From assembly GCA_963716175.1 (NCBI GenBank), contig OY970296.1:928001-992000 (forward strand): a stretch of 64,000 bases of DNA, in the 5' to 3' direction. How positions within the stretch are numbered: position 1 is the stretch's first letter; every line of letters begins with the position of its first letter. Below the pieces are notes generated by a model, which saw only the letters and a list, made by a program, of their open reading frames with translations, made no database searches and had not been told where the DNA came from. The translations under genes were made by a program, and so were the position numbers. This DNA comes from an uncultured Armatimonadetes bacterium. Its GTDB lineage: Bacteria > Armatimonadota > Hebobacteria > Hebobacterales > Hebobacteraceae. Of this stretch, positions 4,951 to 36,562 are shown piece by piece.

Positions 4951-4976
4951 GGCGGGCATGGGCATGCCCGCCCTAC
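4951..4976 (-). repeat. REP family A (GTAGGGCGGGCAT..ATGCCCGCC)
   Basis: GTAG plus palindrome; same family as the REPs flanking the RAYT gene. Confidence 0.9.
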
Positions 4977-30787: not shown

Positions 30788-31594
30788 ATGCAGTTCGTCA
30801 TGTTCACCAAGATGCTGAAGGACCTGAACCCCTCGCAGCTCGCCGACACCATCCAGGATCTCGGTTTCGAGGGCTTCGACTTGGCAGTGCGGCCCGGATA
30901 TCCCATCAACCCGGAGAACGTGCGCACCGCGCTGCCGAAGGCCGCGAAGGAGTGGGCGGCGCGCGGGCTCACCGTCGGCCTGGTCACCACCAACTTCGAT
31001 TTCCTGGACCCGACCAAGCCGGAGGTCGAGCCCCTGCTCGCCGCCTGCGCCGAGATCGGCTGCCGCCGCATCAAGCTCGGCTACTGGGTGTGGAAGGGCG
31101 AACCCTACTGGGAGGGCGTGGACAAGGTTCGCAAGGCCCTGGCCGGTTTCGAGAAGCTATGCGCCAAGCATGATGTCTGCGTCGCCTCCCACACCCACTC
31201 CGGCCCCTACTACGGCTCCAACTGCGCCGGCGCCATGCACCTGGTGAAGGGCTTTGACCCCCGCTACGTCGGGGTCTATATTGACCCGGGCCATCTGGCC
31301 GTGGACGGCGAGGATGTGCCCATGGCCGTGAGCATGGTGAAGGACTACCTCTGCCTGGTCGCGGTCAAGAGCCCGGCCTGGTTCAAGACCGAGAAGGGCG
31401 GCCAGGTGAAATGGCATCACCCCCTGGTGCCGCTGCGCGAGGGCATCGTGGACTGGAAGCAAGCGCTGGATCAGCTCAAGTCCATCAACTACGACGGCCC
31501 CATCAGCCTGCACAGCGAATACGAGAACATCCCCCCGGAGGAGACCATCCGCCTCACCCGGGACGACCTGGCGTATATGAAGTCGCTCATGTAG
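30788..31594 (+). CDS. sugar phosphate isomerase/epimerase (TIM barrel)
   Basis: FTKML, DLAVRPG, HTHSG, DPGH and SLHSEY motifs. Confidence 0.88.
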   Translation: MQFVMFTKMLKDLNPSQLADTIQDLGFEGFDLAVRPGYPINPENVRTALPKAAKEWAARGLTVGLVTTNFDFLDPTKPEVEPLLAACAEIGCRRIKLGYWVWKGEPYWEGVDKVRKALAGFEKLCAKHDVCVASHTHSGPYYGSNCAGAMHLVKGFDPRYVGVYIDPGHLAVDGEDVPMAVSMVKDYLCLVAVKSPAWFKTEKGGQVKWHHPLVPLREGIVDWKQALDQLKSINYDGPISLHSEYENIPPEETIRLTRDDLAYMKSLM

Positions 31595-31660
31595 GGGCGG
31601 GATTCATCCCGCCCGCCTTTCGTCTGTCGCCGTAGGGGCGGGGTCTGCGGACCTCGCCCC
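31591..31660 (+). repeat. two REP family C units
   Basis: GTAGGGGCGGGA-ttca-TCCCGCCC (31591, overlaps the stop) and GTAGGGGCGGGGTC..GACCTCGCCCC (31632). Confidence 0.8.
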
Positions 31661-31683
31661 TCTGCATCTCAACAGTTCCCCCT

Positions 31684-31713
31684 TTGACCCTTCACCCTCC
31701 ACCCGACTATAAT
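31684..31713 (+). promoter_or_regulatory. sigma70 promoter TTGACC-18-TATAAT for serS
   Basis: Near-consensus hexamers; AGGAGG SD downstream. Confidence 0.7.
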
Positions 31714-31733
31714 CACCCCCGACAGGAGGCCTT

Positions 31734-33065
31734 ATGCTCGACCTTCGACTCACCCGCTCCGACCCCGAGTTGGTCCGCCGCGGCGTGAAGCGCCGCGGCT
31801 ATGATGACGCGCCCCTGGATGCTCTCATCAAGGCCGATGAGCGACGCCGCGCCTTGCTCACCGAGGTCGAGGCCCTCAAGGCCGAGCGCAACCGGGTGAG
31901 CGACGAGATCGCGAAGATCAAGCAGCAGAAAGGCGAGGCCGGCGAGTTGATCGCCGAGATGAGGCGCGTCGGCGACCGCATCAAGGCCCTGGATGGGCAG
32001 GTGCGCGAGGCGGAGGCCGAACTCGAGCGCTTCGCCCTCCAGATCCCCAATCTGCCCGACGCCTCCACGCCAGATGGCACCACTGAGGAGGAGAATGTCA
32101 TCGTCCGGGAATGGGGCGAGCCTCGCCACTTCGACTTCGAGCCCAAGCCCCACTGGGAGATCGGCGTCAACCTCGACATCATTGACTTCGAGCGCGCCAC
32201 CAAGATCGCGGGCGCGAAGTTCGACGTGTTCAAGGGCGCGGGCGCGCTGCTGCGGCGGGCCCTGATCAACTTCATGCTCGATCTGCACACCAAGGAGCAC
32301 GGCTACACGGAGATCGCCCCTCCCATCCTGGCGCGGCGCGATTCCCTGATCGCCTCCGGGCATCTCCCGAAGTTCGAGGACGACCAATTCCACGTCCGGG
32401 AGAACGATATGTTCCTGATCCCCACCGCGGAATCGGCGCTCGTCAACCTCCACCGGGAGGAGATCCTCGACGGAGCCAGCCTCCCCCGACGCTACGTCGC
32501 CTATACGCCGTGCTTTCGATACGAGAAGGTCGGCGCCGGCAAAGAGTCCCGCGGCCTCATCCGCCAGTACCAGTTCGACAAAGTCGAGATGTTCAAGTTC
32601 GTCCTGCCCGAGACTTCGTTCGATGAGCTGGAATCAATGGTGAGCAATGCCGAGGCGGTCTACCGGCGGCTGGGCCTGCCCTATCGGCTGGCCCTGATGT
32701 GCGCCGGGGAGATGGCGATGGCCGCGGCCAAGGCCTATGACCCCATGGCCTGGTTTCCGGGCACCGGAAAGTGGCTGGAGCTGAGTTCCTGCTCCAACTG
32801 CCTGGATTGGCAGGCCCGCCGCGCCAATGTCCGCTTCCGCCGGGAGAGGGGTGCCCGTCCCGCCACACGGCCGGCGGGTTCACCCGCCGGCCGTGTGGCG
32901 GGTAAACCCGAGTTCGTCCACACCCTCAACGGCTCCGGCCTCGCCGTCGGCCGCACCCTGGCCTGCGTGCTGGAGAACTACCAGCAGGAGGACGGGAGCG
33001 TCCTGGTGCCGGAGGCGCTGGTTGAGTACATGGGCGGGATGAGGATCGTTGGAAAGGAGAAGTAA
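31734..33065 (+). CDS. serS: seryl-tRNA synthetase (with in-frame palindromic insertion)
   Basis: N-terminal coiled coil, LIPTAE, GLIRQYQFDKVE, SSCSN and HTLNGSGLAVGR motifs. Confidence 0.98.
   Translation: MLDLRLTRSDPELVRRGVKRRGYDDAPLDALIKADERRRALLTEVEALKAERNRVSDEIAKIKQQKGEAGELIAEMRRVGDRIKALDGQVREAEAELERFALQIPNLPDASTPDGTTEEENVIVREWGEPRHFDFEPKPHWEIGVNLDIIDFERATKIAGAKFDVFKGAGALLRRALINFMLDLHTKEHGYTEIAPPILARRDSLIASGHLPKFEDDQFHVRENDMFLIPTAESALVNLHREEILDGASLPRRYVAYTPCFRYEKVGAGKESRGLIRQYQFDKVEMFKFVLPETSFDELESMVSNAEAVYRRLGLPYRLALMCAGEMAMAAAKAYDPMAWFPGTGKWLELSSCSNCLDWQARRANVRFRRERGARPATRPAGSPAGRVAGKPEFVHTLNGSGLAVGRTLACVLENYQQEDGSVLVPEALVEYMGGMRIVGKEK
32859..32902. repeat. perfect 20-bp palindrome inside serS
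   Basis: CCCGCCACACGGCCGGCGGG-ttca-CCCGCCGGCCGTGTGGCGGG. Confidence 0.95.
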
Positions 33066-33066
33066 T

Positions 33067-33102
33067 CGGCGGGCATGCGAAGACATGCCCGCCCTACAGG
33101 AG
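33067..33102 (-). repeat. REP family A, left arm of a 36-bp inverted repeat
   Basis: 35/36 match to the reverse complement of 33977-34012. Confidence 0.92.
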
Positions 33103-33116
33103 ATGAGGGGGTAGAT

Positions 33117-33974
33117 ATGCGGTTCTCAGAGCGATACGGGTTCACACAACCTAGGCAAGCAATCCAGAAAGACGACATGGACGCCGCTCTCAGGAATCGC
33201 CTCTGGGACGCGGTTCACCTTTGGTATCTTTCCGGATGGGTAGAGAGCGGCGTGGATGTCACAGAGCTTGAAGACTCGACCCACGCGCTCTTGTTCCAGT
33301 TGTGGCACTCCTTGTTCAAGATCCCGTGGGACGGAATAGCAGATTCATCCACTGAGCACGTTCGGGATGAGATCCGTAGGCGGTTCTTCGCGTGTGCGTG
33401 GTGGGAGGTGTACAACCTCCTTGAGTTTCTGGCGGCGAACTTAGGCGCGTCCCAGGAAGATTTTTTCTCCATGTGCAATCGCGTACTGGAGGAGGAGAAG
33501 TCAGCTTACCGCTTCGTTGGAACAGAGATAGCGCCCATCACCTCGGAGGAGGAGATCGCTGCCATAGAGGCCGCCTTGTCTGACACCGAGGGCCTTCCTG
33601 CTGTGCGTGCCCACCTGCAGACAACTCTGCAGCTCTTCGCAGATCGCAAGGAGCCAGATTACAGGAACTCGATCAAGGAGGCGATAAGCGCGGTTGAGTC
33701 CCTGGCGCGGCTGATCTGTGGCAAGGAGAAGGCGACGCTTGGCGATGCGCTGAAGCGGATCGAGAAGCACACGAAGGTCGGCCTTCATCCCGCACTCAAA
33801 GCCGCCTTCGAGAAGCTCTATGGCTACACCAGCGATGAGCACGGCATCAGGCACGCCATGACAGAGGATGCAAATGTCGGCCAGGCCGAGGCCCAGTACA
33901 TGCTGGTGGCGTGCTCGGCATTCGTCTCATACCTCATTGCGAAGGCCGCGGAAGCCGGGATTGACCTTGCGTGA
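33117..33974 (+). CDS. AbiJ-like protein (AbiJ N-terminal domain 4 plus C-terminal HEPN-like domain)
   Basis: FSERYG..IQ..MD..LRNRLW N-terminus; PDYRNSIKEAISAVE, LYGYTSD.GIRHA and A.YMLV.CSAF motifs; atypical codon usage. Confidence 0.8.
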   Translation: MRFSERYGFTQPRQAIQKDDMDAALRNRLWDAVHLWYLSGWVESGVDVTELEDSTHALLFQLWHSLFKIPWDGIADSSTEHVRDEIRRRFFACAWWEVYNLLEFLAANLGASQEDFFSMCNRVLEEEKSAYRFVGTEIAPITSEEEIAAIEAALSDTEGLPAVRAHLQTTLQLFADRKEPDYRNSIKEAISAVESLARLICGKEKATLGDALKRIEKHTKVGLHPALKAAFEKLYGYTSDEHGIRHAMTEDANVGQAEAQYMLVACSAFVSYLIAKAAEAGIDLA

Positions 33975-33976
33975 TC

Positions 33977-34012
33977 CTCCTGTAGGGCGGGCATGTCTCC
34001 GCATGCCCGCCG
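33977..34012 (+). repeat. REP family A, shared between the AbiJ gene and the RAYT gene
   Basis: GTAGGGCGGGCATGTCTCCGCATGCCCGCC. Confidence 0.92.
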
Positions 34013-34019
34013 TCGGAGT

Positions 34020-34520
34020 ATGGCTGGCATGACGAACCCCGGCACCGAAGACCACCTCCCGCAGCGCAAGCACCTCCGCCGCCTGGAGCGCATCACCGTC
34101 CCCGGGGCGCCTCTGTTCTTCCTGACGGCCTGCGTCAGGGGGCGCCTCCCGCTGCTGGCCGAGCCGCAGGTTGCCGATATCCTGGCACGGGCCTGGCGGC
34201 ACTCTCAAATGGCTCACGGCTGGCTGGTCGGACGATACGTCATCATGCCCGATCATGTACACTTCTTCGCCTCGCCCATGGGCGAAGTGGCAAAAGACCT
34301 GGCGCGGTTCATGAACTACTGGAAGCGGAGCACCGCCATCAGGGTCCGCAAGCAGCTTCTGCGCCGGTTCTCCTGGCAGACTGAGTTCTTCGATCACCTC
34401 TTGCGCAGCGACGAGTCATATGAGGAGAAGTGGACATATGTCTGGCACAACCCCGTGCGAGCCGGATTGGTGACCGACCCGTCCGACTGGCCATACCAGG
34501 GCGAGATCAACGTGATCTGA
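34020..34520 (+). mobile_element. REP-associated tyrosine (HUH/Y1) transposase, RAYT
   Basis: FFLTAC, YVIMPDHVH (HUH), WQ..FFDH..R, Y..HNPVRAGL and DWPY motifs; flanked by inverted REPs. Confidence 0.93.
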
Positions 34521-34532
34521 GCTCCCCCGAGC

Positions 34533-34591
34533 GGCGGGCATGCGCCCTGCTCTGCCAAGGCTTCGCAACACAGGCGACATGCCCGCCCTAC
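34533..34591 (-). repeat. REP family A with about 30-bp insert in its loop
   Basis: GGCGGGCATGC[GCCCTGCTCTGCCAAGGCTTCGCAACACAGGC]GACATGCCCGCCCTAC; GTAG overlaps the MBL gene stop. Confidence 0.85.
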
Positions 34592-35421
34592 AGGACCCAC
34601 CTCTCCCCAGGCGCGATGATGTGCAAGCGCTTATCTGCGTTCTCGATCAGCGCCGCTACCTCGGCCGGGTCGTGGTCATAGGCGGAGTGGCCGGGGGCGT
34701 CGTAGCTGCCAAAGTGGTGGGCGATGATGTGGGGGGCGCCGGTGGCGTTGGCCAGGCGCGCCGCGTTCTCGGTCCCGAAGTGGTAATCGCAGTTCGAGAC
34801 ATTGAGCAGCAGCACGTCAATGCCGCTCATCCTCAGGTGCTCCTCCATCAGGCGGCTGTCACCCGGGTGCCAGATGCTCCCATCCGGAGTGGAGACGACG
34901 AACCCGCAGCAATCGTCCCGCCCCCAGGGCGGGCCCCACTCCGGGTTCTGCTCCTGCCAGGGATGATCGGCGGGAGTGGCTGTGATCTGCACGTGCCTGA
35001 ACACGAACCGCTGACCGGCCCGCACCACCTGGACCCGGTCATCCGGGACCCCCAGCTTAGCCAGCACCCCGGCCACTGGCGCTGTCCCCACGAACAAGGC
35101 ACCGGTCCGGATCAACTCCGGCGCCGTCTTCGGCCCCAGGTGGTCCTCATCGGCATGGGTGTAGAGCACCAGATCGAGCCGCGGCACCTGCGAGGCGACG
35201 ATGGGGAAAGGCACCAGCATCCGGTAGCCCATCTCCATCACGCCGGGCGCCGTCGGGTCCTGCCAGATCACCGGATCTATCATCACCAAGGTGCCGCGGG
35301 CATTGATCAGGAACCCGGCATTGGTCAGCCACCACAAGGCCGTCTCCTGAAATGGCGCGAATGCCTCCGCACCCATGGGCCGGGTGGAGGGAGCGATAAC
35401 CTGGGAGTGGAAAGAGCACAC
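34588..35421 (-). CDS. MBL-fold metallo-hydrolase (UlaG-like)
   Basis: WWLTNAGF, IDP, THADEDH, ADH, HPGDS and HHFG motifs; start uncertain. Confidence 0.88.
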   Translation of the reverse strand: MCSFHSQVIAPSTRPMGAEAFAPFQETALWWLTNAGFLINARGTLVMIDPVIWQDPTAPGVMEMGYRMLVPFPIVASQVPRLDLVLYTHADEDHLGPKTAPELIRTGALFVGTAPVAGVLAKLGVPDDRVQVVRAGQRFVFRHVQITATPADHPWQEQNPEWGPPWGRDDCCGFVVSTPDGSIWHPGDSRLMEEHLRMSGIDVLLLNVSNCDYHFGTENAARLANATGAPHIIAHHFGSYDAPGHSAYDHDPAEVAALIENADKRLHIIAPGERWVL

Positions 35422-35571
35422 GCGAGAGGTCTCCAAGGATGTTGGGGTTGGGATTCGCAGGGCGGGAAGGTGTCTCCTGCTGGCGGCACGAAGGGATTCC
35501 CGCGGGGGCAGAGAAGACCCTGGCGGGATGGCGGGGTTTCCACCAAGGTCGCAGGGCAGGAGAGGTACGCA

Positions 35572-35814
35572 ATGGCCAAGGCGAGGGTGATCATCACTCT
35601 GAAGAGGACCATCATGGACGCCCAGGGGCAGACGGTGGAGAATGCTCTGCACAACCTGGGCTATCAGGGCGTGCAGAACGTGCGCATCGGCAAGTACGTC
35701 GAGATGGAGGTCAACGGCGCGCCCAGGGCGCAGCTGCAGGCGCAATTGGACGAGATGTGCCGCCAGCTGCTGGCCAACCCGATCATCGAAGATTTCCGCT
35801 TCGAGATCGAATAG
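35572..35814 (+). CDS. purS: FGAM synthase subunit PurS
   Basis: DAQG, VRIGKY and LLANPIIE motifs. Confidence 0.96.
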
Positions 35815-35843
35815 CATGAGCGCCGCCACAAGACTGCGTGATA

Positions 35844-35865
35844 ACCGGCTGGGAGCCGGTGCCAC
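35844..35865 (-). repeat. REP-like GTGGCACCGGCTCCCAGCCGGT
   Basis: GTGG plus ACCGGCT/AGCCGGT palindrome between purS and purQ. Confidence 0.55.
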
Positions 35866-35872
35866 CTCCAAG

Positions 35873-36562
35873 ATGCGCTTCGGCGTCGTCGTCTTCCCCG
35901 GCTCCAACTGCGACACCGATGCCTGGCACGCCCTGCACGATCAGATGGGCGCGCCGGTGGACTACATTTGGCACCAGCAGACGGATGTCAGCGGCTTCGA
36001 CTGCATCATCCTGCCCGGCGGTTTCAGCTATGGCGATTACCTCCGCACCGGGGCGGTGGCGCGGTTCTCGCCGGTGATGAACGCGGTGGCGGACTTCGCC
36101 GGCCGGGGCGGGCTGGTGCTCGGCATCTGCAACGGCTTCCAGATCCTCTGTGAGGCCGCCCTGGTGCCTGGCGCCATGATGCGCAACGCCGGACAGAAGT
36201 TCGTCTGTAAGTACGTCAACATCCGAGTCGAGACCACGGACACTCCGTTTACCCGCGCCATGCAGAAGGGCGCGGTGCTGCGCATTCCCATCGCCCACGG
36301 CGAAGGCAACTACTACTGCGATGACGCCATCCTCGCCGAGCTCAAGCGGAACGACCGGATCGTCTTCCGCTACTGCACCCCGCAGGGAGAGATCAGCCCA
36401 GAGTCAAACCCGAACGGGGCACTGGACAACATCGCGGGCATCTGCAATCGCGAGCGCAACGTGCTGGGCATGATGCCCCATCCTGAGCGTTGCTCCGACC
36501 CGATATTGGGTTCTGCGGATGGGCGCCTGGTGTGGGAGAGCCTAATGCGGGGGAGCAGGTGA
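35873..36562 (+). CDS. purQ: FGAM synthase glutaminase subunit
   Basis: [23 protein letters not shown] and MMPHPER motifs. Confidence 0.98.

Follow-up and report, generated by a model that had tools for sequence, protein, structure and literature searches.

A gene that looks foreign and probably belongs to the candidate anti-phage genes (AbiJ-like, PDC-S32 type) lies between inverted copies of a GTAG-type REP hairpin, in the order REP(-)-cargo-REP(+)-RAYT-REP(-), and comparison of strains supports a younger history for this cassette than for its flanks. The locus may represent an ordinary REPtron in a variable slot, in which REPs serve as boundaries of insertion and recombination and the cassette is exchanged among strains; we give this reading an even chance of being correct. 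This arrangement is confirmed and is seen again in one sister genus. As the repeats enclose ordinary genes no less often, active capture of the AbiJ-like gene is no more than a possibility.

Anatomy of the locus

The AbiJ-like gene (Table 1) is enclosed by a 36-nt inverted repeat, the arms of which (33067-33102 and 33977-34012) are 35/36 (97%) complementary and 874 nt apart. The left arm, REP1, stops 14 nt short of the ATG at 33117, and the right arm, REP2, begins 2 nt past the TGA at 33972-33974. Both GTAG feet (minus strand 33094-33097, plus strand 33982-33985) face the gene; read on the plus strand, REP1 presents its hairpin first and CTAC second. The tight enclosure with a single mismatch and the polarity of the feet agree with the original prediction, as does the double role of the right repeat as 5′ REP of the RAYT gene: REP2 ends 7 nt before the ORF of an apparently intact RAYT1, and REP3(-) opens 11 nt after its stop codon. 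The AbiJ-like gene and RAYT1 are on the same strand, with a gap of 45 nt that contains REP2 alone. On the outer sides, the TAA stop of serS lies 1 nt before REP1, and the TAG stop of the MBL gene is supplied by the GTAG of REP3. REP1 and REP3 have identical segments of 13 nt and 20 nt in common. The single-stranded hairpin folds beat those of shuffled sequences (z = -4.6 for REP1, -5.3 for REP2, -3.4 for REP3).

The repeat had also been described as reaching 5 nt beyond GTAG. This extension is seen, but it is partly family consensus: among 226 REP copies of the genome, T is found at -1 in 209/226 and C at -2 in 151/226, and CTCCT is the second commonest 5-mer before GTAG (10/226). TnpA-REP enzymes cut at CT in vitro according to excerpts of one study (PMC8266576), which the conserved CT before GTAG matches here.

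Table 1. Positions of the serS-MBL features within the analysed stretch.
Feature	Position	Strand	Family or fold
serS (seryl-tRNA synthetase), upstream core gene	31734..33065	+	Pfam Seryl_tRNA_N, tRNA-synt_2b
REP1, GTAG-type, left inverted-repeat arm, direct repeat of REP3	33067..33102	-	ssDNA fold -14.2 kcal/mol
AbiJ-like / PDC-S32 candidate defence gene, 285 aa	33117..33974	+	AbiJ_NTD4 N-terminal and HEPN-like C-terminal helical domain (predicted)
REP2, right arm, GTAG first then hairpin	33977..34012	+	ssDNA fold -16.3 kcal/mol
RAYT1 (REP-associated tyrosine transposase, TnpA-REP type), apparently intact	34020..34520	+	NF047646, Y1_Tnp; alternative start 34029
REP3, long-loop subtype, 3′ REP of RAYT1	34532..34595	-	ssDNA fold -22.3 kcal/mol
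MBL-fold hydrolase gene, downstream core gene, convergent with serS	34588..35385	-	Pfam Lactamase_B_2, 4.5e-22

The REP-bounded gene

The assignment of the cargo to an AbiJ-like, defence-type family is supported by sequence profiles and, more tentatively, by fold comparison. The product matches AbiJ_NTD4 (Pfam PF18863, 2.2e-31, profile positions 1-151/152) and, over its full length, PADLOC PDLC04997 (PDC-S32; 2.1e-106, covering 7-282 of 285). For residues 156-280 the top VIA-align matches are HEPN domains, with Z scores of 9.1-8.1 that are below the safe level for helical bundles. The cargo thereby resembles AbiJ/HEPN abortive-infection proteins and PDC-S32. It differs from AbiJ/HEPN proteins in that its C-terminal 135 residues (151-285) yield no Pfam match, neither HEPN nor Abi_C, and in that the canonical Rx4-6H spacing is not seen in its family, where the adjacent R245-H246 plus R183-N184 are invariant. 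Neither Foldseek against the PDB (E <=0.001) nor a profile search of the PDB, run with the cargo alignment, returned a match. Neither the name PDC-S32 nor a defence test of the family was found in the literature searched.

An expected foreign origin of the cargo is borne out by the rarity of PDC-S32, present in 1/31 genomes of the class, and by a GC3 of 72% vs 87-90% in the neighbouring genes; its overall GC of 58% falls within the lowest 0.5% of genome windows. The closest outside homologues belong to other phyla and are 39-59% identical; near-identical cargo was not found in the genome or metagenome collections, where the best match is 59% identical. A paralogue in the same genome is only 51% identical and is without tight REPs. 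Such features suggest that the gene was acquired horizontally.

A constant tie of this cargo to REPs does not hold elsewhere: inverted repeats flank 0/20 PDC-S32 homologue loci (the paralogue of this genome and 19 loci from elsewhere, 2 more having been set aside because their flanks were short). A Y1-like gene lies within 5 kb of PDC-S32 homologues elsewhere at 2/21 loci, never adjacent.

RAYT1 and the REP family

RAYT1 is a genuine RAYT with cognate REPs, as had been proposed. It scores 104.6 bits with NCBIfam NF047646 (cut-off 80) and 26.3 bits with Pfam Y1_Tnp (cut-off 23), and it aligns to the TnpA-REP structure of PDB 4er8 with an E value of 6e-8. The HUH residues H79 and H81 and the catalytic Y140 are invariant in 14 aligned RAYTs and match the equivalent residues of 4er8. 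Catalysis by RAYT1, including cleavage of single-stranded REP at CT, is putative. TnpA-REP is described as cleaving and recombining single-stranded REPs in vitro (excerpts of PMC3333891), the complementary strand of a REP reportedly not being a substrate (excerpts of PMC8266576).

The genome contains four RAYT paralogues (54-67% identical), each with its own REP subtype, and RAYT1 with its GTAG-REPs is one of at least four such pairs. Both studies, as far as their excerpts go, portray RAYTs as domesticated, single-copy and immobile (PMC8266576, PMC3333891); several paralogues at non-conserved loci do not fit that picture. Like the E. coli REPtron (yafM locus, PDB 4er8; Ton-Hoang et al. 2012, PMC3333891), the unit has a RAYT that belongs to NF047646 and carries the HUH and Tyr motifs, flanking inverted GTAG-tagged palindromes that are dispersed genome-wide, and the CT conserved beside GTAG. 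Unlike there, an extra protein gene is present between a further REP and the 5′ REP, and RAYT paralogues are several instead of single. Moreover, the RAYT units of different genera are found here at different places, lodged between genes that are neighbours in G000; the E. coli REPtron, by contrast, reportedly does not move as a unit.

The 14-nt REP core occurs 7 times at <=1 mismatch in the window (the whole 64-kb stretch analysed) vs 0.02 expected. Genome-wide we count 87 exact copies, 226 at <=1 mismatch and 387 at <=2, with a concentration near all four RAYTs. Since any two copies of the subtype of REP1 and REP2 are already 32-33/36 identical (and 13/231 pairs among its 22 copies also reach >=35/36), identity between flanking REPs is only slender evidence that a REP was duplicated.

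REP bracketing is generic in this genome, and ordinary genes are enclosed by the repeats no less frequently. Genome-wide, 14 genes (<=1 mismatch) or 20 genes (<=2 mismatches) have REPs on either side at a distance of no more than 130 nt. The 17 others that we annotated are mostly housekeeping genes (e.g. PGK, 6PGD, PfkB, ROK, BacA, RtcA, serpin), and a full-length defence match was obtained for 0/17. An enrichment of REP-bounded genes for foreign or defence functions is absent in this genome, an outcome that the original prediction had named as counting against it. Because core metabolic genes are bracketed too, REP brackets alone are no sign of mobility.

The serS slot in relatives and strains

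Orthologues of serS (69-83% identity) are present in 12/14 family relatives. The serS region was retrieved for 11 relatives; serS and the MBL gene are direct neighbours in four of them (G001, G004, G010, G014), and neither the AbiJ-like gene nor a RAYT is found at this region in any (0/11). The serS-MBL spacer of G001 and G010 holds one GTAG palindrome, which contains the MBL stop codon; this junction REP, single there, is doubled here as REP1 and REP3, which are direct repeats separated by ~1.43 kb. The 1.5-kb block is lineage-specific, as anticipated, and constitutes an insertion at the serS-MBL junction relative to these genomes, the order of events being read from family-level relatives with no same-genus genome among them. 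The slot beside serS is variable: it holds PIN and SPFH genes in G006, an SPFH gene in G005, and REPs followed by ETF genes in G008 and G012. Variable cargo between the same REPs at the same locus, which had been suggested as a check, was not found.

For strain comparison, we used contigs of four metagenome runs (X1-X4, Logan) over 31500-36500. The runs were chosen by k-mers in common with the stretch, which favours runs holding some near-identical part; none of the runs listed in this way was an RNA run. The REP-to-REP piece 33071-34009 differs by 0/737, 5/939, 2/939 and 4/626 in X1-X4; at the same depth, divergence of the flanks amounts to 1.5%, 3.1%, 2.7% and 2.7%. Divergence is thus 0-0.6% in the cassette vs 1.5-3% in the flanks, RAYT included (Fisher p 1e-3 to 1e-7). 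As the RAYT1 pieces are 1.6-3.5% diverged between strains and the cargo 0-0.6%, cargo and RAYT1 lack one common history. Logan contigs break at REPs, so the position of the cassette in the other strains and the limits of the low-divergence tract are presumptive; X1 is uncovered at 34172-35507. REP3 is 29 nt shorter in X2 and X4 (12 nt and 17 nt are left out), and this shortened form appears to equal REP1 letter for letter, including a loop variant present in only 2/22 subtype copies.

Excised or inverted forms, also named as a check of the original prediction, were not seen: the contigs of X1-X4 contain no credible excision, circle, inverted or empty-site joints over 31500-36500. Two joints in X2 (34012>34316 and 34350>33067) were rejected as excision forms, as their short side is <=28 nt and their depth differs; they are attributed to other REP loci.

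Recurrence at other RAYT loci

Beside a RAYT of another genus (G002:C309), the equivalent REP-bounded position is taken by another defence-like gene, in support of the original prediction. This locus has the identical five-part layout with a SIR2-like cargo; direct REP(-) copies, nearly identical to each other, stand on both sides of the unit, and GTAG once more contains the stop codon of the core gene that follows. An empty site for this insertion was not found, the UbiA gene having other neighbours in the 6 relatives checked. In the genome studied here, a TIR-gene remnant occupies the 5′ slot of RAYT3, and in G006 a UDG-family gene lies 5′ of the RAYT. At three RAYT loci of the lineage, a defence-type gene or remnant is present in the REP-bounded slot just upstream. 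The G002 layout and the TIR remnant show more order than would be predicted for a passive hot spot. Of the GTAG-REP RAYT loci examined in the family, 7/13 have no extra gene inside their REPs.

Relatives of RAYT1 were gathered by an alignment query, a single-protein scan having given only 2 loci, and the resulting RAYT1-like set comprises 82 loci. Their REPs were located via locus-specific copies, since general detection of GTAG hairpins gave too much noise where DNA is rich in GC. At 51/66 RAYT loci, the gene next upstream has the same orientation. In other genomes of the phylum, RAYTs are found between the two genes of a Type III R-M pair and immediately upstream of a Type I REase gene, and in a survey of the phylum strong defence neighbours number 10/129 vs 0/134 in controls (p = 0.0007). 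The defence signal at wider RAYT1-like loci is weak: PADLOC matches number 14/138 vs 7/134 in controls (p = 0.17), and a second count gave 6/138 vs 0/134, chiefly generic matches. Beyond the family, an esterase-like gene and a cyclophilin gene are among the REP-bracketed genes next upstream of RAYT1-like genes.

Possible origin of the arrangement

In the reading to which we give an even chance, RAYT1 and its cognate GTAG-REPs would be an intact REPtron of the ordinary kind, lodged in the variable slot between the convergent serS and MBL-hydrolase genes, and an acquired PDC-S32 gene would fill the space that separates REP1 from REP2, the 5′ REP of that REPtron. REP hairpins would be sites of DNA insertion in this lineage, and their near-identical 35-nt sequences would permit exchange between strains; the REPs would bound the gene because they are such sites. 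The cassette would have been introduced or swapped among strains later than the divergence of the RAYT and the flanking genes. The anatomy, the family assignments, the foreignness of the gene, the insertion relative to relatives and the unequal divergence are observed; we infer REP-targeted insertion, REP-to-REP exchange and any enzymatic role of the RAYT.

REPs are said to be insertion targets of IS elements, a proposal attributed to Tobes and Pareja in 2006. Replacement of the E. coli REPtron by hicAB is also described (excerpts of PMC3333891). In both, as at this locus, REPs or their immediate surroundings received foreign DNA, and an accessory module of the toxin type occupies a REPtron locus; here, the cargo comes without an IS or integrase and the REPtron is kept alongside. 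Strain-specific genes and mobile elements of Pseudomonas are reported to fall in REP deserts (excerpts of PMC3390384), so that a foreign gene this closely framed by REPs would not be expected as the rule.

Alternatively, [REP(-)-cargo-REP(+)-RAYT] might be a RAYT-catalysed mobile module, i.e. an IS200/IS605-like unit with a passenger gene, the circle of which integrates at a resident REP by cleavage at CT beside GTAG and strand transfer, leaving direct REPs at the junctions. The 1.43-kb insert flanked by direct copies of a REP found once at this junction in G001 and G010, the apparent identity of the shortened REP3 of X2 and X4 with REP1, the same layout with direct flanks in G002, the RAYT units at different loci per genus and the in vitro activity of TnpA-REP all point this way. 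Similarity to IS200/IS605 elements with passenger genes extends to a Y1 HUH relative, subterminal hairpins (REP1, REP3) on one strand at the insert ends, and an insertion between two core genes for which relatives (4/11) show the empty site, with a single REP in two of them. However, these elements differ from the present unit, which is single-copy (no second REP-cargo-REP-RAYT was found in the genome, the AbiJ paralogue being only 51% and the RAYT paralogues 54-67% identical), is not conserved as a unit elsewhere, contains an internal inverted REP and is unequally diverged in cargo and transposase. In view also of the missing excision or circle joints and the limited weight of identical REP flanks, we regard such a module as unlikely. 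We judge it similarly improbable that the bracket arose by coincidence in a REP-dense neighbourhood, where REPs would gather at RAYTs and gene 3′ ends as RNA or terminator-like hairpins and the defence gene would have arrived by an unrelated route, the bracket being irrelevant to its mobility. The 14-20 genes bracketed likewise, the clustering of REPs near all four RAYTs, the bare PDC-S32 loci, the esterase-like and cyclophilin neighbours and the outcome of the RAYT1-like survey speak for coincidence, but the exact layout in G002, the TIR remnant, the UDG-family gene, the low divergence specific to the cassette in X1-X4 and the phylum survey argue against it.

A functional pairing, in which the AbiJ-like gene and RAYT1 would be co-transcribed, the ssDNA-cutting RAYT would aid defence and the REP hairpin would tune expression, may be suggested by the shared strand and 45-nt gap, by the co-oriented neighbours and by the RAYTs at restriction-modification genes. 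However, partners vary by locus, more than half of the family loci examined have no extra gene inside their REPs, Y1-like genes are never adjacent to PDC-S32 genes elsewhere, and the two genes are unequally diverged; we consider this pairing very unlikely.

Possible significance

The interest of the locus lies in the host role of RAYTs and REPs. A more far-reaching version of the exchange reading, which we hold to be quite doubtful, takes the REP-bounded interval 5′ of the RAYT as a docking slot for gene cassettes. RAYT-catalysed REP-to-REP transfer would integrate or swap [REP-gene] or [REP-gene-REP-RAYT] modules at resident REPs, or recombination between near-identical REPs would be seeded by RAYT nicks. 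If true, this would amount to an integrase-free, integron-like acquisition and exchange of defence genes and to a host benefit for RAYTs. If REPs, with or without RAYT, mark exchangeable slots, REP/RAYT systems would be tied to the turnover of anti-phage genes; if they do not, the locus calls for caution, as tight REP brackets flank core metabolic genes too. With three REPs and one enzyme in 1.5 kb, it offers a compact, testable substrate.

The original proposal that RAYT and REPs act as a capture or exchange system for defence genes stands in part: the recurrence in G002 and the younger cassette favour it, but brackets are generic, no excision joint was seen, and an inverted pair, which places the cleavable strands on opposite strands, is not a known substrate geometry of Y1 transposases, RAYT1 activity itself being putative.

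Relation to REPINs

Bertels and Rainey are reported to have described the REPIN, in 2011, as a REP doublet that forms a hairpin. REP1 and REP2 resemble it in being one REP present twice in inverted orientation. That they form a giant REPIN or the ends of a transposon is nevertheless rejected on polarity, on spacing and on the complementary strand reportedly not being a substrate (excerpts of PMC8266576): the present pair is GTAG-inward with a coding spacer, whereas in this genome the doublets of REPIN type have GTAG outward at distances of 60-200 nt, with 25 '+-' vs 2 '-+' pairs at <=2 mismatches.

Organisation of the serS locus

The genome is a single contig of 4.56 Mb with 66.2% GC, and the array between serS and the gene of an MBL-fold hydrolase is as follows.

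Features of the array at 31734-35385 (window positions)
Feature	Position	Strand	Structure or role
serS	31734 onward, stop 33063-33065	+	first feature of the array
REP1	33067-33102		hairpin then CTAC
AbiJ-like ORF (cargo)	33117-33974		
REP2	33977-34012		GTAG then hairpin
RAYT ORF (RAYT1)	34020-34520		
REP3	34532-34595		long-loop hairpin then CTAC
MBL-fold hydrolase gene	ends array at 35385	-	TAG stop is the TAG of the REP3 GTAG

The original prediction of a 36-nt inverted repeat around the AbiJ-like gene is confirmed, REP1 and REP2 matching at 35 of 36 positions. REP1 and REP3 are direct repeats, identical over 13 nt at one end and 20 nt at the other, and each of the three REPs folds as a DNA hairpin better than shuffled controls. 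The match of REP1 and REP2 is high, but not unique: among 22 REP copies of the same subtype, 13 of 231 pairs reach at least 35/36 identity. The repeat does extend 5 nt beyond GTAG as had been noted, but these bases are partly family consensus, above all CT. TnpA-REP enzymes are described as cutting at a CT dinucleotide in vitro (PMC8266576).

The 14-nt REP core occurs genome-wide in 87 exact copies, 226 with up to one mismatch and 387 with up to two; further copies in the window lie at 4963, 45784, 52958 and 62614 (n=4). REP doublets at 60-200 nt (up to two mismatches) are almost all GTAG-outward (25 '+-' vs 2 '-+'), whereas REP1 and REP2 face GTAG-inward; hence the pair is not a REPIN.

The identity of RAYT1 is borne out by the NCBIfam model REP_Tyr_transpos (104.6 bits, cut-off 80) and by alignment to E. 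coli TnpA-REP (4er8), with the HUH histidines and the tyrosine retained. Four RAYT paralogues in the genome, with 54-67% identity to RAYT1, belong to this type, each beside a distinct REP subtype; a fifth, more distant RAYT lacks REPs of this type in its vicinity. RAYT2, one of the paralogues, has an IS110-family transposase gene about 1.5 kb away (G000:C1:4047550-4049220; L071 751-2421). Insertion of IS110 elements into REPs has been reported (PMC12288879).

Family and origin of the cargo

Residues 1-155 of the cargo match Pfam AbiJ_NTD4 (2.2e-31), and its full length is covered by a match to PDC-S32, a single-gene candidate system in PADLOC (2.1e-106), in agreement with its assignment as an AbiJ-like defence-type gene. 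A Pfam search with the C-terminal 135 residues matched no family, and Foldseek with the predicted model (mean pLDDT 75) gave no match. In VIA-align, HEPN domains are nearest to residues 156-280 (2hsb, Z 9.1; 1ufb, 8.9; sacsin HEPN, 8.2; AbiA, 7.5; AbiV, 6.2), which may suggest a HEPN fold for this part, Z values of this size not being safe for helical bundles.

The cargo is a foreign gene. Its GC content of 58% lies in the lowest 0.5% of genome windows, and its GC3 is 72% vs 87-90% in the neighbours. The PDC-S32 profile finds two copies in this genome and none in 30 other genomes of the class, and the closest homologues in genome and metagenome collections show 39-59% identity, the titled records coming from other phyla. 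The second copy (G000:C1:3718471-3720054, locus L029, outside the window; 51% identity to the cargo) adjoins a VapB-VapC (PIN) pair next to uvrC, and there is no REP within 900 nt of it. A tie between this gene family and REPs was not borne out: flanking inverted repeats were found at 0 of 20 homologue loci (19 from elsewhere and the paralogue; two more were dropped for short flanks), with best scores of 7-11 vs 33 for the window.

Neither are REP-bounded genes in this genome enriched for defence or foreign functions. With a crude gene caller (3972 genes), 14 genes had a REP core no more than 130 nt from each end when one mismatch was allowed, and 20 when two were. Leaving out the cargo and the RAYT1 and RAYT2 genes, 17 were annotated, among them phosphoglycerate kinase, 6-phosphogluconate dehydrogenase, PfkB and ROK kinases, BacA, RtcA, a serpin, a nitrilase-type hydrolase, a TPR protein and three unknowns. 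PADLOC matched only two of the 17, partially and generically (a methyltransferase and a TPR protein). The GC3 percentiles of the 17 are mostly 0.4-1.0.

The serS junction in related genera

The serS region was compared in 11 relatives, all from other genera of the family. In four of them (G001, G004, G010, G014) serS adjoins the MBL gene, followed by purS-purQ-purL, and in two (G002, G003) purS comes directly after serS. The others carry 1.1 kb of unassigned DNA after serS (G011), 3.9 kb ahead of the MBL gene that encode a PIN-domain and an SPFH protein (G006), an SPFH gene (G005), or REPs and then ETF genes (G008, G012). An AbiJ-like gene or a RAYT was found at this junction in none of the 11. 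The serS-MBL spacer of G001 and G010 (about 40 nt) is a GTAG palindrome in hairpin-CTAC orientation, and the MBL stop codon lies inside its GTAG exactly as at REP3 (window 34588-34591; G001, G010; L019, L023). In the window REP1 keeps the serS junction and REP3 the MBL junction; the cargo, REP2 and the RAYT, about 1.43 kb in all, are therefore enclosed by direct copies of a REP of which G001 and G010 have just one here. Relative to these genera, the block is inserted at a variable junction that carries REPs.

Other RAYT loci of the family

A RAYT locus of the relative G002 (G002:C309) has the order methyltransferase gene, REP(-), 356-aa SIR2-like ORF, REP(+), RAYT, REP(-) and convergent UbiA gene, the signs giving the strand of GTAG. 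The two REP(-) are nearly identical. The TAG stop of the SIR2-like ORF lies within the GTAG of REP(+), and that of the UbiA gene within the GTAG of the second REP(-) (L067 4529-4532, 5151-5156). The ORF is a weak SIR2 candidate by profile search (Pfam SIR2_2, 24.0 bits vs a cut-off of 24.5; best PADLOC SIR2 models, 2e-8 and 3e-7).

Directly 5' of RAYT3, a further paralogue of the genome under study, an 87-aa ORF lies between two REPs outside the window (G000:C1:3131739-3132002; L072 2240-2503). It matches a CAP12/Pycsar-type TIR domain (PF10137, 2.5e-15) and PDC-S35 (2.6e-16), over the C-terminal part of each, making it a C-terminal fragment of a TIR-type defence effector. The closest RAYT1 homologue (66%; G006:C472) and a co-oriented UDG-superfamily gene are bracketed by one and the same REP pair, and seven further family loci are plain REP-RAYT-REP. 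The RAYT units of the family are wedged between genes that are adjacent in the present genome, except RAYT2, which is syntenic with G008; RAYT positions are therefore otherwise not conserved across genera.

Strain divergence in metagenomes

Four metagenome runs from four studies (X1-X4), ranked by shared k-mers, each hold parts of the window. Their contigs end at REPs, and the cassette (REP1-cargo-REP2) and the flanks were compared as separate pieces. Mismatches to the window number 0/737 (X1), 5/939 (X2), 2/939 (X3) and 4/626 (X4) in the REP1-to-REP2 contig (33071-34009); the flank pieces listed (serS, RAYT, MBL gene, purQ), at equal depth, differ by 1.5%, 3.1%, 2.7% and 2.7%, respectively (Fisher p about 1e-3 to 1e-7 for the pieces listed). 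Among these, RAYT pieces alone diverge by 1.6-3.5%. All pieces in X3 have a depth of about 22, for the whole of which the serS variants account, and therefore represent one population with diverged flanks and a near-identical cassette. These data support a cassette history decoupled from that of the flanks.

The REP3 loop is shorter by 12 nt and 17 nt in X2 and X4 (polymorphic region 34545-34575); the shortened REP3 appears identical to REP1, including a loop variant present in 2 of 22 subtype copies. Several REPs elsewhere in the genome also have the long loop. In one X2 contig (depth 12.4) a REP2-like end runs into 34316-34350, followed by 12 other letters and the REP1 start; it may be another locus, with two REPs flanking a 35-nt scrap of a RAYT gene.

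Defence genes beside RAYTs

Transposase genes are frequent in defence islands. Survey A drew on the NF047646 hits of a phylum sample of 121 genomes and on the family loci, 69 RAYT loci from 40 genomes in all, and 134 evenly spaced genes, all from the genome under study, served as control for both surveys. PADLOC matched 17 of 129 immediate neighbours at E 1e-6 or better (8/66 upstream, 9/63 downstream) vs 7/134 controls, all generic (p = 0.03), and 10/129 vs 0/134 at 1e-20 (p = 0.0007). With the loci of the control genome removed, 13/119 (p = 0.11) and 8/119 (p = 0.002) remain. The 1e-20 set consists of ZorD/DpdE-like, Type III MTase, REase, ShosA, IetA-like, mad3, PDC-S32, PifA, UvrD-type helicase and Type I REase genes. 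The Type III MTase and REase genes lie on opposite sides of one RAYT (L096, genome G096), and another RAYT is directly upstream of the Type I REase gene (L117, G094:C281).

In Survey B, which covered 82 RAYT1-like loci from species genomes, neighbours were truncated at 480 residues. Matches were found for 14/138 neighbours at 1e-6 (7/67 upstream, 7/71 downstream; p = 0.17) and for 6/138 at 1e-20 (p = 0.03), five of the latter generic (two DEAD-box helicases, GlgB, an ABC-type ATPase and a methyltransferase) and the sixth PDC-M37B/DolB. Three related Kiritimatiellales loci have a Cas4-like nuclease upstream (about 1e-17). Locus-specific REP copies bracket the upstream neighbour in 5 of 82 loci, namely the SIR2-like gene of G002, an acetyl-xylan-esterase-like gene, a cyclophilin gene and two unassigned genes. 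With a one-genome control, related genomes that are not independent and crude ORF calls, the surveys display a modest enrichment of defence genes beside RAYTs, strongest for restriction-modification genes, and no rule.

Possible origin of the arrangement

A REPtron is described as a RAYT gene bordered by REP/BIME, IS200/IS605-like and apparently not transposing as a unit (PMC3333891). In some strains of E. coli, hicAB has taken its place (PMC3333891), and REPs are reported as targets of IS elements (PMC1525189). Our literature search found no report tying RAYT/REP to defence-gene capture, and PMC6006769 does not contain the words 'restriction' or 'defen'.

The data support a REPtron located at a REP already resident in a variable slot, carrying a foreign defence-type gene in a REP-bounded interval upstream of the RAYT, the same design with another cargo in a sister genus, and a cassette history decoupled from the flanks. 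The predicted capture or exchange system is thereby supported in part; active capture by the RAYT is not supported, and its simplest geometry is implausible. Excision of REP1/REP2 as IS200/IS605 ends is ruled out, because the inverted REPs put the substrate strand on opposite strands and the complement of REP is reported inactive as substrate (PMC8266576). The geometry of IS200/IS605 ends, both on one strand, is found only for REP1 with REP3, and the same source describes tnpA-REP as usually single-copy and lacking evidence of mobility. Movement of the module by RAYT catalysis appears unlikely to us. Coincidence within a REP-dense neighbourhood seems similarly improbable. The other RAYT loci (G002:C309, RAYT3, G006:C472), the population data and the REP3 polymorphism point to a more organised arrangement. 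We give about even chances to REPs having acted as boundaries of insertion and exchange, with or without the enzyme.

A perfect palindrome (21-nt arms, 2-nt loop) lies in frame within serS at 32859-32902. It coincides with a 16-residue insertion missing from SerS of three relatives, and the plus strand of the genome carries the arm 19 times when two mismatches are allowed; an essential gene therefore appears to have received an in-frame copy of a second dispersed palindrome family.
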